The notes beneath the pieces were generated by a model. It searched no databases. It was not told where the DNA came from and saw only the letters and a program-made list of their open reading frames with translations. The position numbers and the translations under genes were made by a program. DNA of 32,000 nucleotides, taken from positions 90,001-122,000 of the forward strand of contig OY970357.1 in the NCBI GenBank assembly GCA_963718585.1, in the 5' to 3' direction. Positions 2,743 to 29,746 of the stretch are shown here, in pieces; positions within the stretch are counted from its first letter, which is position 1; every line of letters begins with the position of its first letter. Origin of the DNA: Candidatus Saccharimonadota bacterium (GTDB lineage: Bacteria; Patescibacteriota; Patescibacteriia; 2-12-FULL-60-25).

Positions 2743-3498
2743 TCAGTGATCCGTATTGCGGATATGGGCGAAGAAGATGACGGCCCAGCGATCCTCCGCG
2801 GTCCCGTTCGTGGGGTCCACGACGTCGTGGACCAGGGCGGGAATGAGTCCGCGCGTGAGACGCTCCAGTTTTTGCCCTGCGAAGAGCAATGCTTCGTCCG
2901 GGACGGAACGGAATGATTCACGTGTGTCGCCGAGGCGGAGCGCCGGACGGCTTTCCGCGATCTGGAGGGTCAGACACGCACGGTCCGTATGGGCGCGCGC
3001 GATGTGAATTCCACGGTCGTAGCGTAGGATCCGGAGGACGTGGAGATCACCGGCGTCGCGGATACGTCGGACGAGGTCATGGCCGGGGAGCGCACCATCG
3101 AAGGCGTCGGCGAACGTGAGCGCCTGCTCAAGGCAGATCGCGTGGAGACGCGTGCAGACGGTGAGCAGATCCTCATGGGCCGAGGTGTGGACACTGTAGT
3201 CGGCAAGATGCGAGCGCAGGCTTGATCGATAGTGGAAGAGCCACTTGTCGTCTTTGTCTTCTCCTCCGCTACTGGTCTTGCGGATCAAGCCATCGTCCGG
3301 CTCATCATCCGGTTCGCCATCGCGGCTGATCTCGAGAGTCCATCGATCACGATCGGGATCCTCGATGAGTCGGCGAATGCCGGTGACGGCTTCGCGCGCA
3401 AGGCTCGAACTGACAAGCGGGACGTTGGTGCGCCCGCGGCGGATGAACTCGGCCGCTTGGGGGCCGAGATCGCCTTCTTCTGACGGGATGCAGAACAT
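2743..3498 (-). CDS. 2OG-Fe(II) oxygenase superfamily protein (isopenicillin-N-synthase-like)
   Basis: HxD...H facial triad candidates (AHTDRACLTLQ and ALVHDVV) with an RWAVIFFAH C-terminal strand. I chose the MFCIPSEEG ATG (3498) as the start because GGAGG lies 7 nt upstream. Confidence 0.6.
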   Translation of the reverse strand: MFCIPSEEGDLGPQAAEFIRRGRTNVPLVSSSLAREAVTGIRRLIEDPDRDRWTLEISRDGEPDDEPDDGLIRKTSSGGEDKDDKWLFHYRSSLRSHLADYSVHTSAHEDLLTVCTRLHAICLEQALTFADAFDGALPGHDLVRRIRDAGDLHVLRILRYDRGIHIARAHTDRACLTLQIAESRPALRLGDTRESFRSVPDEALLFAGQKLERLTRGLIPALVHDVVDPTNGTAEDRWAVIFFAHIRNTDH

Positions 3499-3637
3499 CT
3501 CTGACCTCCAGGGTGAAAGGGCTCCCAGTAGTATGGGAGCCCTGCACGCGATGGGCAAATGGTGACGAGGTGCGTCTTGACCGACATCCGAAAATAGCGC
3601 ATCATCACGGGGCGATTGACCCTCCTAACAGGAGGGT

Positions 3638-3738
3638 TCGAGCGAAACGAGGTTGCGGAGCGTAGCGGAGCAAAACGCAGGCGTCGCGCAGACCCAAGTG
3701 AAGCCGCATCAGCGGATGAACGGGTGGTCAACGCGACC
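3638..3738 (+). repeat. tRNA-leader element, copy A (upstream of tRNA-Leu)
   Basis: Shares the exact blocks GTCGCGCAGACCCAAGTGA and GAACGGGTGGTCAACGCGAC with copy B (28462-28562). An internal hairpin is present, and the element ends 11 nt before the tRNA 5' end. Confidence 0.8.
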
Positions 3739-3748
3739 AGCCGAGTAC

Positions 3749-3817
<69 letters not shown>

Positions 3818-3835
<18 letters not shown>

Positions 3836-3914
3836 CATCAAAAAACCCCGACAGGGGTTTTTTGATGTGGAGAGACGAGAACGGGAAAGGGTGAAAACGG
3901 AAGTTTTCACATGC
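3818..3914 (+). repeat. 97-nt direct repeat, copy 1 (last 18 nt of tRNA-Leu + terminator + start of trailer core)
   Basis: Aligns ungapped with 3979-4075 with 4 mismatched positions. The period is 161 nt. Confidence 0.9.
3836..3867. terminator. Terminator hairpin directly abutting the tRNA-Leu CCA
   Basis: Perfect 14-bp stem CATCAAAAAACCCC-GACA-GGGGTTTTTTGATG. A/T runs inside the stem would let it work in both orientations. Confidence 0.7.
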
Positions 3915-3978
3915 GGAGGAAGGTCTGCGGAAACCCGAAGGTTTCCGCAAAGGCGCGCGAATGCGCGTCCGGTGAGAT

Positions 3979-4075
3979 GTCTCTCCCCGCCCACCACATC
4001 AAAAAACCCCGACAGGGGTTTTTGATTGTGGAGAGACGGGAACGGGAAAGGGTGAAAACGGAAGTTTTCACATGC
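3979..4075 (+). repeat. 97-nt direct repeat, copy 2 (orphan tRNA-Leu 3' fragment + terminator + trailer core)
   Basis: GTCTCTCCCCGCCCACCA (3979-3996) is identical to the tRNA-Leu 3' end. A near-identical terminator and the GGAGAGACGGGAACGGGAAAGGGTGAAAACGGAAGTTTTCAC segment follow. Confidence 0.9.
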
Positions 4076-18128: not shown

Positions 18129-18235
18129 ATGACGCCCTTTTTGGGCACAGAACTTTGTCACTCGCTCCGTTCGCTCGTTTCGCGTTCTGCATCCCAAAAC
18201 GGCATCATGCGAACTCCGAGAACGAATGTTTCGTG

Positions 18236-27390: not shown

Positions 27391-27424
27391 GAAGAAAAGA
27401 TCCCCTCACGGGGATCTTTTCTTC
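27391..27424. terminator. Strong bidirectional terminator hairpin
   Basis: Perfect 15-bp stem GAAGAAAAGATCCCC-TCAC-GGGGATCTTTTCTTC, starting at the nucleotide after the stop codon. Confidence 0.8.
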
Positions 27425-27437
27425 TGGCGGGCGTGCC
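27425..27437 (-). repeat. Orphan tRNA-Ile(GAU) 3'-end-like fragment
   Basis: Minus strand GGCACGCCCGCCA versus the tRNA 3' end GGCACGCCCACCA (12/13 identical). It sits immediately before the terminator hairpin. Confidence 0.55.
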
Positions 27438-27444
27438 CCGCACG

Positions 27445-27511
27445 GCGTATTGCGCTGACCACCCATTCTCTGCCTGCGGCGGATCACTTGGGTCTGTGCG
27501 ACGCCTGCGCT
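27445..27511 (-). repeat. tRNA-leader element, copy D (orphan, not followed by an intact tRNA)
   Basis: The minus strand shares the 25-nt block CAGACCCAAGTGATCCGCCGCAGGC with copy B, plus GAATGGGTGGTC. Confidence 0.8.
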
Positions 27512-27566
27512 CAGTTTGCCGTACAAACTGGTAAACGAGCCGGAGGAAACCGTTCAGCTCATATGC

Positions 27567-27578
27567 GTTCGAGTCCAG
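27567..27578 (-). repeat. Inverted copy of the tRNA-Ile(GAU) T-loop/T-stem
   Basis: Plus strand GTTCGAGTCCAG is identical to the tRNA sense sequence although the tRNA is on the minus strand. It is therefore an inverted repeat, located just past the tRNA terminator. Confidence 0.7.
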
Positions 27579-27590
27579 ACACATATGAAA

Positions 27591-27614
27591 ATCACCCCGT
27601 TGTATCGGGATGAT
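27591..27614 (-). terminator. Terminator hairpin after tRNA-Ile(GAU)
   Basis: Minus strand ATCATCCCG-ATACAA-CGGGGTGAT (one G:U pair) followed by TTTC. Confidence 0.6.
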
Positions 27615-27619
27615 TTACA

Positions 27620-27696
27620 TGGTGGGCGTGCCTGGACTCGAACCAGGGACCTTCACATTATCAGTGTGACGCTCTAACCACCTGAGCTACACGCCC
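27620..27696 (-). tRNA. tRNA-Ile (anticodon GAU), CCA encoded
   Basis: GGGCGTG/TA/GCTC-AGGTGGTTA-GAGC/G/TCACA-CTGATAA-TGTGA/AGGTC/CCTGG-TTCGAGT-CCAGG/CACGCCC-A-CCA. Confidence 0.92.
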
Positions 27697-28420: not shown

Positions 28421-28461
28421 TCCATCCCCGTTCGTCAGTAGGCGAACATGTCCGCTGTTCT

Positions 28462-28562
28462 CTGCGAGCGTAGCGAGCTTGCGTAGCGAAGCGGAGCAAA
28501 GCGCAGATGTCGCGCAGACCCAAGTGATCCGCCGCAGGCGGAGAACGGGTGGTCAACGCGAC
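28462..28562 (+). repeat. tRNA-leader element, copy B (upstream of tRNA-Phe)
   Basis: See copy A. It has the internal hairpin TCCGCC-GCA-GGCGGA and the outer stem GTCGCG...CGCGAC, and it ends 11 nt before the tRNA 5' end. Confidence 0.8.
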
Positions 28563-28573
28563 AGATCAAGCAT

Positions 28574-28648
28574 GCCGAGGTAGCTCAGTGGTAGAGCGAA
28601 GGACTGAAAATCCTTGCGTCGCCAGTTCGATCCTGGCCCTCGGCACCA
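28574..28648 (+). tRNA. tRNA-Phe (anticodon GAA), CCA encoded
   Basis: GCCGAGG/TA/GCTC-AGTGGTA-GAGC/G/AAGGA-CTGAAAA-TCCTT/GCGTC/GCCAG-TTCGATC-CTGGC/CCTCGGC-A-CCA. Confidence 0.92.
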
Positions 28649-29267: not shown

Positions 29268-29290
29268 GCCCCGGTATCCCGGGGCTTTTT
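29268..29290 (+). terminator. Intrinsic terminator
   Basis: GCCCCGG-TATC-CCGGGGC followed by TTTTT. Confidence 0.7.
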
Positions 29291-29295
29291 CATAC

Positions 29296-29671
29296 GAAAA
29301 AGCACCGCGAGGGTGCTCTTTCACTTGGAGCGGGTAGCGGGAGATCTCCGTCGTCGCTTAGCTCCTCCCACGAAAACCTTCGGGTTTTCGTGTGCTTTCC
29401 TCAGAATGTGAAACCTTCCGGTTTCACCCTTCCCCGGTTCGACTCCCGCATCTGTCTGTTCAAATGAAAAAGCACCGCGAGGGTGCTCTTTCACTTGGAG
29501 CGGGTAGCGGGAGATCTCCCGCGGCCTTCGGCCTTCTGGGAACCCATCGGTTCCCAGCTCACTCCGTTCGCTCCCTCCGCCATGGGGAACTCCCGTTCCC
29601 CAACGCCCTTCCCGTTCGACTCATCCACCATCAGTCCAAAAACAAATAGACCCGTTGGGTCCACTTGTTTT
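29296..29671 (-). repeat. tRNA-Gly trailer array: two ~170-nt structured units, each ending in an orphan tRNA-Gly 3' fragment plus terminator
   Basis: Perfect 54-nt repeat at 29296-29349 and 29466-29519. The 19-nt TTGGAGCGGGTAGCGGGAG occurs three times (29325, 29495, 29671), the third being the real tRNA 3' end. Inverted T-arm copies lie at 29436-29449 (14/14) and 29613-29626 (partial). Confidence 0.9.
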
Positions 29672-29746
29672 TGGAGCGGGTAGCGGGAGTCGAACCCGCC
29701 TCTCAACCTTGGAAGGGTCGCATAATAGCCGCTATACGATACCCGC
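29672..29746 (-). tRNA. tRNA-Gly (anticodon UCC), CCA encoded
   Basis: GCGGGTA/TC/GTAT-AGCGGCTA-TTAT.../anticodon loop CTTCCAA/T-arm GCGGG-TTCGACT-CCCGC/TACCCGC-T-CCA. It closely resembles the E. coli tRNA-Gly(UCC) layout. Confidence 0.9.

Follow-up and report, generated by a model that had tools for sequence, protein, structure and literature searches.

A covarying family of structured elements in the predicted pre-tRNA 5′ leaders of a Candidatus Uhrbacteria genome

The stretch of DNA analysed in this study (32,000 nt, positions 90,001 to 122,000 of the forward strand of contig OY970357.1; referred to as the window) carries six tRNA genes, and copies of a non-coding element of about 95 nt lie in the flanks of tRNA-Leu(CAG), tRNA-Phe(GAA) and tRNA-Ile(GAU). 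Together with one copy each in the metagenome contig L060 and the metagenome-assembled genome L002, the copies A, B, C and E of the window make up a family of six members from three genomes. Five of the six adjoin the first nucleotide of a tRNA (+1), and four tRNAs are involved (Leu-CAG, Phe-GAA, Met-CAU and, twice, Ile-GAU). We have shown that this family exists and that its members have a common fold which is maintained by compensatory changes. The best reading of the sequences is that the element is a leader module selected at the RNA level, presumably removed by RNase P and able to spread between tRNA loci. That it represents a lineage-restricted family of structured RNA modules in transcribed pre-tRNA 5′ leaders of a Candidatus Uhrbacteria genome (Patescibacteria/Candidate Phyla Radiation, CPR) is an assignment whose chances we put at about even. 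The tRNA genes concerned and the copies in the window are as follows:

3749-3835, + strand: tRNA-Leu(CAG)
28574-28648, + strand: tRNA-Phe(GAA)
27620-27696, − strand: tRNA-Ile(GAU)
3653-3748, + strand: copy A; small hairpin P0 at 3653-3673, linker, rod at 3675-3746, then AC and +1 of tRNA-Leu(CAG) at 3749
28479-28573, + strand: copy B; P0 at 28479-28499, rod at 28501-28571, then AU and +1 of tRNA-Phe(GAA) at 28574
27791-27697, − strand: copy C; P0 at 27791-27771, rod at 27769-27699, then AA and +1 of tRNA-Ile(GAU) at 27696
27527-27437, − strand: copy E; a variant of P0 and a rod at 27510-27440, with no intact tRNA behind it

Copies A and B are 86% identical over 100 nt (E = 2e-22), B and C 73% over 88 nt (E = 2e-10) and A and C 67% over 111 nt (E = 1e-5), the E-values referring to a small database of the window and the compared loci. 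Copy E is 90% identical to B over 60 nt, and A, B and E share 86-96% identity over blocks, though they occupy different loci. A covariance model built from the six copies gave scores of 71 bits for A, 66.7 for B and 63.4 for C, and the lowest score, 53.3, for E. Copy A was also found in an independent Logan assembly (L095). The first-pass annotation, made from the letters of the window, had grouped A, B and C as one family preceding the Leu, Phe and Ile(GAU) tRNAs in their orientation. The similarity, which is far above chance, bears this out, and both blocks reported as exactly shared by A and B, GTCGCGCAGACCCAAGTGA and GAACGGGTGGTCAACGCGAC, are present in the two copies (repeat families D6 and D18). 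The copy then called D is also a member (our copy E), but it does not lie in a tRNA leader; it is situated about 110 nt downstream of tRNA-Ile(GAU). All six copies have the orientation of the adjacent tRNA. Similarity, repeat and covariance-model searches of the window found no copy away from tRNA flanks, and repeat families longer than about 40 nt are confined to these flanks throughout the window.

The architecture common to all six members consists of P0, a linker A-R-CGSAG and an irregular rod of 66-72 nt. P0 (UUGC-loop-GCAA) is lengthened to 9 bp in L002, has the strands UUUG and CAAA in E and is otherwise only 4 bp long. From the base to the tip, the rod is composed of P1b (2 bp, R-C/G-Y), P1a (3 bp; GGC/GCC, with GAU/AUC in B and GCC/GGC in C), a 2-nt bulge on the 3′ side, P1 (6-7 bp), an internal loop, P2 (2-5 bp), an AA/GG loop, P3 (2 bp; GU/AC, GU/AU or GG/CC), tandem G.A/A.G pairs found in all six copies, P4 (5-6 bp) and an apical loop of 3-4 nt. 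For the hairpin variants and the stems that enclose them, the sequence agrees exactly with the first-pass annotation, and the inner hairpins fold alike. The copies had been said to end 8-11 nt before the tRNA; the tRNA positions were right, but helices P1a and P1b extend the hairpin, so that the base of the rod is separated from +1 by 2-3 nt. The motifs AAGTGA and GA(A/G)AA around the hairpin had been assigned to all copies; the latter fails in A, where the 3′ motif is GAUGAAC. Similarly, the motif GCGAAGC, placed in the 5′ halves of B and C, sits in the 3′ arm of a hairpin in C.

The pairing was evaluated in a hand-made structural alignment of the six sequences, in which 96.9% of 159 cells form standard pairs and 19 of the 28 pairs show changes on both sides. 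None of 500 shuffles matched any of the five pairing measures, and when the partners were slid by 1-3 columns as a control, pairing fell to 27-36% of the cells. Next to the covarying stems, the unpaired stretches of the linker and the loops (CGSAG, AAGUGA and GAAYGG) are conserved, and the loops are asymmetric and not palindromic. A clear case is provided by C and L002, which represent one locus: their P1 helices differ by one compensated change (GACGAGC/GCTCGTC vs GACGAAC/GTTCGT) and P3 is GU/AU in C vs GG/CC in L002. The inner hairpins take the same fold each, with z = −3.0 to −4.2 relative to shuffles. Minimum free energy (MFE) folding of single sequences gave the rod in A, B, C, L060 and L002 (z = −2.6 to −4.5, with P1a formed in four of the five); the individual values in the window were −3.0 for A, P1a included, −4.5 for B and −2.6 for C. 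When the spacer of B was folded together with the whole tRNA, the rod and the cloverleaf formed independently, side by side. The 5′ half built of "heptamers" showed no conserved fold.

Copy E, the copy without a tRNA, is informative in this respect. A terminator hairpin and an inverted T-arm fragment precede it; behind it come GTGCGGGGCACGCCCGCCA, which copies the last 18 nt of tRNA-Ile in degenerate form, and a bidirectional terminator at about 27395-27425. Its MFE structure differs from that of the family (z = −1.0, with 33 of 200 shuffles folding equally well), and it holds three of the five unpaired cells of the alignment, all of them transitions relative to B that are left uncompensated. 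The fold is thus kept before intact tRNAs and lost in E, which is the best available argument for selection at the RNA level tied to the pre-tRNA context. Another explanation would be that the element is a gene for a small trans-acting RNA (sRNA) which uses the downstream tRNA as its 3′ maturation signal through the RNase P cut at +1, with E as a free-standing version having its own terminator. The terminator behind E, the conservation of the single-stranded linker and loops, and a rod that would guard a 3′ end made by RNase P agree with this explanation. Precedents for RNAs linked to tRNAs are the plant tRNA-snoRNA dicistrons, the tRNA-miRNA units of murine gammaherpesvirus 68 (MHV68) and rttR derived from E. 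coli tyrT. However, E has neither the fold nor a recognisable promoter, no target complementarity to the cognate tRNAs was found, the distribution is very narrow, and several paralogs per genome with differing stems would be unusual for one trans-acting RNA. We consider the sRNA explanation improbable.

The position of the element inside the leader was deduced from orthologous loci and a consensus scan for promoters. The MgtC of the window has its nearest relatives in Candidatus Uhrbacteria/Patescibacteria metagenome-assembled genomes (MAGs), with 59-74% identity, and the order tRNA-Ile(GAU) <- MgtC -> tRNA-Phe is kept in about 13 of these MAGs, so that the orthologous leaders are comparable. 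Two promoters are relevant:

3577-3605, + strand: promoter-like site TTGACC-17-CATCAT preceding leader A, the single site detected in 3400-3950 (0.0 expected from shuffles)
27879-27851, − strand: tRNA-Ile(GAU) promoter TTGCCT-17-TATCCT followed by atcGGCAC, from a comparison of 13 orthologous loci

The tRNA-Ile(GAU) promoter of the window is below the threshold of a consensus scan and its assignment therefore relies on orthology: the pattern TTGCCA or TTGTCA, a spacer of about 17 nt, TAnnnT and ..GCAC is kept in about 13 Uhrbacteria loci. The distance from this promoter to +1 is 5-25 nt in L005, L006, L010, L012, L015 and L094, whereas the leader carrying C has about 148 nt. With the orthologous promoter upstream of C and short leaders in the relatives, C appears as an insertion within the leader. 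Copy B lies between the stop codon of MgtC (28420) and tRNA-Phe, and the corresponding spacer is 0-23 nt long in six relatives, which suggests that tRNA-Phe is co-transcribed with MgtC there. Transcription of leader A would start near 3612. The proposal that the element lies within the tRNA leader in tRNA orientation was thus supported by the conserved promoter upstream of C and the promoter-like site upstream of A, and the element is a lineage-specific insertion in what is predicted to be transcribed leader. The near-consensus promoters noted earlier for tRNA-Pro and tRNA-Gly could be read directly (TTGACA-17-TATGAT and TTGTCA-17-TACGAT, respectively, 14 nt before +1).

The same data bear on the possibility that the element acts at the DNA level as an operator, an upstream activating region or a mobile tRNA promoter cassette. 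It is close to tRNA genes and its inverted-repeat character could bind a dimeric protein. Nevertheless, the promoters are situated outside the element, on its upstream side, and have orthologs in relatives that lack it, so that the promoter cassette suggested in the first-pass annotation found no support. Promoter scans found no −35/−10 pair within the rod, and B follows a gene that abuts tRNA-Phe directly in other species. Compensatory changes across five helices together with conserved asymmetric loops are also unexpected for an operator. A DNA-level site is accordingly the reading to which we give the least credence.

The beginning of leader A (3609-3642, +) contains GGGCGATTG, with 8/9 matches to tRNA-Leu positions 1-9, and GGAGGGTTCGAG further on; CCTCC-TAACA-GGAGG is followed there by GTTCGAG, which resembles the T-arm GAGAGTTCGAG. 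This might be a decayed 5′ fragment of an upstream tRNA-Leu that breaks in the T-loop, an assignment that is tentative because the stretch starts just 4 nt past the −10 box.

The distribution of the family is narrow. A metagenome scan with the motif GCAAARCGSAG..AAGTGA..GAAYGG, conserved in A, B and C, returned 34 matches, and the one real member among them was L060, located directly upstream of tRNA-Met(CAU). The other 33 belonged to unrelated contigs with 27-64% G+C, mostly to two recurrent low-G+C sequences from human-gut and other metagenomes. Viral scans gave nothing or chance matches only, and the latter were reused as decoys for the covariance model. A diverged member was found at the orthologous tRNA-Ile locus of L002. 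Contigs retrieved through homologs of MgtC, of the open reading frame (ORF) beside the tRNA-Met of L060 and of the 2OG oxygenase beside tRNA-Leu yielded copies identical to that of L060 and relatives free of the element, but no new variants. Applied to the window and 150 kb of Uhrbacteria loci, the covariance model found the six copies and no others, and in 0.7 Mb of decoy loci with the loose motif it had no match below E = 0.4. Four independent assemblies of the L060 organism (L060, L221, L222 and L223) start within 3 nt of one another, about 65 nt upstream of the element, and this common start suggests a repeat boundary there. In a relative of the L060 organism, ARAGORN predicted a tRNA-like gene with a four-base anticodon (ggtg) beside tRNA-Gly (L220, 3942-4015, +).

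The L002 genome has a GIY-YIG gene, a promoter and a 10-nt leader, CGCCGAGCAA, before tRNA-Leu(CAG) in place of the element. This leader equals the tail of the element, which reads GCCGAG(Y)A in A, L060 and L002 and GGCGAGUA in C. The tail may therefore originate from the tRNA-Leu(CAG) locus, as a native leader carried along while the module spread.

The main rival to a selected leader RNA is a selfish, non-autonomous DNA repeat of the kind of MITEs (miniature inverted-repeat transposable elements), REP, BOX or Correia-like sequences. Its palindrome would be needed for a recombinase or transposase acting in trans, or it would spread by gene conversion. It would pile up in tRNA flanks where insertion is tolerated or targeted, and the RNA fold would be a by-product. 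We regard this explanation as possible, though unlikely. It is in agreement with the high turnover, the element being absent from the closest relatives at matching loci, and with the above-mentioned identity of A, B and E at different loci. Further evidence in its favour comes from the repeats that surround the element, of which the following were located in the window:

3818-4075, + strand: tRNA-Leu downstream unit with a 161-nt period; 3818-3914 and 3979-4075 are 96% identical over 97 nt
29289-29695, − strand: two tRNA-Gly downstream units with spacings of 170 and 176 nt
18129-18229, − strand: leader of tRNA-Ile(UAU), about 100 nt, with the promoter TTGTTC-17-TATATT at 18264-18236

Complete downstream units occur after tRNA-Leu and tRNA-Gly. 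They comprise a terminator, part of the T-arm of their own tRNA in inverted orientation, hairpins, GAGAT and the last 18 nt of that tRNA as an exact copy. The tRNA-Leu unit repeats these 18 nt (GTCTCTCCCCGCCCACCA), the terminator and GGAGAGACGAGAACGGGAAAGGGTGAAAACGGAAGTTTTCACATGC and carries the inverted T-arm of tRNA-Leu. Each tRNA-Gly unit starts with the inverted T-arm piece and ends with GAGAT and the exact 18-nt 3′-end copy CTCCCGCTACCCGCTCCA; the second of them is 80% identical to the tRNA-Leu unit over 84 nt. The unit downstream of tRNA-Ile(GAU) (27425-27619, −) consists of a terminator hairpin, the inverted T-arm piece GGACTCGAAC, copy E and GTGCGGGGCACGCCCGCCA, and it is the location of copy E inside it that links the families of leader rods and downstream units. 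In the same organism (L096 of Logan ERR11571143, 6525-6609), a terminator and GGAGTCGAACGGGAAAGGGTGAAAACGGGAGTTTTCACAT stand after tRNA-Arg(TCG), where the contig ends with just the initial part of a unit present. Since L096 ends there and L095 ends inside the tRNA-Leu repeat, the assemblies evidently break at downstream units.

The leader of tRNA-Ile(UAU) has the 5′ "heptamer" module only, with GCGAAACGAG in common with A, and no rod. The heptamer tract noted before this tRNA in the first-pass annotation is thus shared as a 5′ module but is not the full element, which the covariance model does not detect there. The tract matches the first tRNA-Gly unit over 23 nt at 83%. A hairpin GCAGAAC...GTTCTG(T)GC in this leader encloses the tract GCGAAACGAGCGAACGGAGCGAG. 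The L094 ortholog has 13 nt only between TATATT and +1.

Other leaders in the relatives also contain pieces of tRNA genes or nuclease genes. A different conserved tRNA-Phe leader was found in five Uhrbacteria (L002 3516-3580, L007 3526-3594, L010 3508-3578, L011 3486-3559 and L094 10499-10559). In it, GCCGAGGTAGCTC, which corresponds to the first 13 nt of tRNA-Phe, precedes a variable hairpin rich in G+C, the conserved CAGGCAGTGGNACCACTTCGC and a spacer rich in A+T; the whole looks like a decayed upstream copy of tRNA-Phe truncated in the T-loop. The window retains only the end of that leader (CCCCGTTCGTCA, 28426-28437). Leaders starting with a partial 5′ copy of the downstream tRNA occur in L007, L009, L013 and L015, and GIY-YIG nuclease ORFs fill the slot directly upstream of tRNAs in relatives. 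These features are:

L007, 2754-2830, − strand: tRNA-Ile(GAU); the tRNA-Ile copy in its leader reaches the T-loop, with the anticodon arm replaced
L009, 2737-2813, − strand: tRNA-Ile(GAU); the tRNA-Ile copy in its leader reaches the anticodon loop
L013, 2789-2863, + strand: tRNA-Pro; leader with a tRNA-Pro fragment
L015, 6074-6150, − strand: tRNA-Pro; leader with a tRNA-Pro fragment
L226, 9437-10000, − strand: GIY-YIG ORF flanked by inverted repeats of about 45 nt, then a promoter and tRNA-Leu
L013, 3616-3864, + strand: GIY-YIG ORF overlapping tRNA-Phe +1 by 10 nt
L009, about 3480-3815, + strand: frameshifted GIY-YIG gene ending exactly at tRNA +1

The modular mosaic, in which the 5′ module recurs in the tRNA-Ile(UAU) leader and in the first tRNA-Gly unit and the rod in the tRNA-Ile downstream unit, speaks for the selfish-repeat explanation. 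It is likewise supported by partial tRNA copies with T-loop breakpoints in these flanks, by the GIY-YIG genes in the upstream slot of the relatives and by the breaking of assemblies at these repeats. Against it stand the unpaired motifs and asymmetric loops, which are kept while the stems covary, the co-orientation of all six copies with transcription, and the finding that E, the sole copy outside a leader, is the decaying one. The borders lack terminal inverted repeats and target-site duplications, and the element has no similarity to the GIY-YIG cassettes. A Pfam scan of the ten largest ORFs of the window revealed no transposase, integrase or reverse transcriptase; the window genes are housekeeping ones (RNase J, UvrA, H+-pyrophosphatase, P-type ATPase and MgtC) and the remainder of the window is syntenic with L094, whose MgtC is 74% identical. 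ERIC/IRU, the pneumococcal BOX, Neisseria Correia and REP/BIME elements are similarly multi-copy, non-coding imperfect palindromes of patchy distribution in transcribed intergenic DNA. Their fold is maintained among copies and BOX is modular. Unlike them, the element was seen in tRNA flanks only, with its 3′ end fixed 2-3 nt from +1 and in a single orientation, and it has no terminal inverted repeats, target-site duplication or associated transposase. In direct comparison, the copies in the window are 66-72 nt long, tRNA-associated only and in one orientation, whereas REP sequences are 20-40-nt palindromes with 5′ GTAG that have many extragenic copies in both orientations and flank a gene for a RAYT transposase.

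The downstream units resemble the E. coli tyrT/tyrV repeats of 178 bp, which are an analogue of these units but not of the rod in the leaders. The E. coli K-12 spacings are 178 and 178, the repeat reaches 19 nt into tyrV, and rttR, which is annotated there, and tpr arise from this region. In both organisms, tandem repeats of 161-178 bp follow a tRNA, each with the last 18-19 nt of the tRNA. The window units differ in having the inverted T-arm piece, in accompanying several tRNAs (Leu, Gly, Arg and Ile) and in that one of them carries the rod (E); no sequence similarity between the window downstream units and rttR was found. As for scars of attachment (att) sites, the 18-nt copies of the tRNA 3′ end after tRNA-Leu and tRNA-Gly enclose only about 145-160 nt of DNA, and the rods A-C are not flanked by tRNA repeats, though a weak 5′ pseudo-copy may precede A (3609-3642). 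Partial tRNA genes are usually ascribed to integration (PMC9897764).

It is also conceivable, if quite improbable in our opinion, that the rods and the downstream units are products of a single tRNA-gene-specific recombination or mobility system in CPR bacteria. Such a system would place its modules at positions defined by the mature tRNA, the rods at +1 (the RNase P site) and the downstream copies from position 59; these copies comprise exactly the last 18 nt including CCA. This boundary coincides with the one at which the modified nucleotide m1A58 halts retroviral reverse transcriptases on a tRNA primer. A single system would imply either an RNA-templated route, i.e. ligation and reverse transcription, or a recombinase reading the T-loop, with the rod as a selected RNA handle that has a protein partner of its own.

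Known RNA families and classes do not account for the element. At gathering thresholds, Rfam 15 matched only the six tRNAs of the window, and at E <= 10 it left the rods of A, B, C and E without a match, so that the earlier impression of an element outside the known families held. A kink-turn was excluded because the tandem GA is flanked on both sides by Watson-Crick pairs (P4 and the covarying P3) and the 3-nt bulge is absent. In the case of the hammerhead and other small ribozymes, AAGUGA ... GAAY lies in an unbranched rod, which does not correspond to the three-way core CUGANGA ... GAAA, and there was no ribozyme match at E <= 10. An intrinsic terminator or attenuator was rejected as well: the rods end with RAG(Y)A(N) followed by the tRNA, without a U tract, and scans show no terminator there. 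BLAST searches did not support an origin from GIY-YIG cassettes. An antisense function towards the own tRNA or its trailer was rejected on the grounds that the longest complement is 5-7 nt, equal to that of shuffles. The energy of the leader-tRNA duplex corresponds to the shuffle mean for A and C, and B alone is weaker than shuffles. Since the leader-tRNA complementarity is at chance level and the rod and cloverleaf of B fold side by side, the leader seems to be self-contained.

If the element is a selected leader RNA, the module would be co-transcribed with the tRNA and the RNase P cut at +1 would free about 100-150 nt of leader RNA or, in the case of B, the 3′ end of the MgtC mRNA. Capping the 3′ end of the released RNA, the rod would shield it from exonucleases, and by folding the long leader on itself would prevent interference with tRNA folding. 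The invariant tandem-G.A loop is a likely platform for protein binding. Spread between tRNA loci could occur by recombination that sets the 3′ end of the module at tRNA +1. The weak basal helices P1b and P1a, with a loop and a bulge between them, must probably open before the RNase P cut.

Several considerations weigh against such a leader RNA. A helix 2-3 nt from +1 is expected, if anything, to slow RNase P and not to aid it. Where transcription starts, whether RNase P cuts and how stable the freed leader would be are deduced from sequence. The alignment comprises six sequences only, among which A, B and E are mutually close, it was fitted by hand to the structure, which inflates the pair counts, and the counts of G.U vs A.C do not tell the strands apart. 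In L060, the 5′ strand of P0 overlaps the predicted −10 box, so that P0 may be untranscribed there; because of this overlap and the missing conserved fold of the 5′ half, we consider the rod to be the core of the family. Finally, the closest relatives are free of the element, and it must therefore be dispensable. This holds for L094, whose Ile leader is short and whose Phe leader is of a different kind, and for the L060 clade (79-91% identity of the neighbouring ORF). The tRNA-Met orthologs in the relatives of L060 have a short leader (L219) or a rod-free one of about 50 nt (L217/L218), and L220 and L224/L225 have no tRNA-Met at the orthologous position. Such a patchy distribution fits a selfish repeat equally well.

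Taken together, the element is best classed as a narrowly distributed new leader module, to be placed with leader RNAs or structured interspersed repeats. With ordinary bacterial pre-tRNA leaders it shares the position between promoter and +1, the tRNA orientation and the few unpaired nucleotides before the cleavage site. Ordinary leaders are short and unstructured (5-25 nt in the relatives studied here), whereas those with the element have 100-150 nt and a covarying rod of 66-72 nt common to several tRNAs. The RNAs matured from tRNA transcripts (plant tRNA-snoRNA, MHV68 tRNA-miRNA, E. coli 3′ETS-leuZ and rttR) are likewise structured and released by nucleases, as predicted here; the element differs from them in lying 5′ of the tRNA and in being repeated before several tRNAs.

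CPR bacteria have genomes of about 1 Mb with little spare DNA, and 100-150 nt of conserved, covarying structure are present before several tRNAs despite the small genome. On the practical side, independent short-read assemblies break at these repeats. If the element proves to be selfish, the flanks of tRNA genes in Uhrbacteria would offer a niche to modular repeats, GIY-YIG genes and partial copies of tRNAs. If the rod is functional, it would be the first described class of structured RNA dedicated to bacterial pre-tRNA leaders and would provide an entry to tRNA maturation and RNA stability in an uncultivated phylum.

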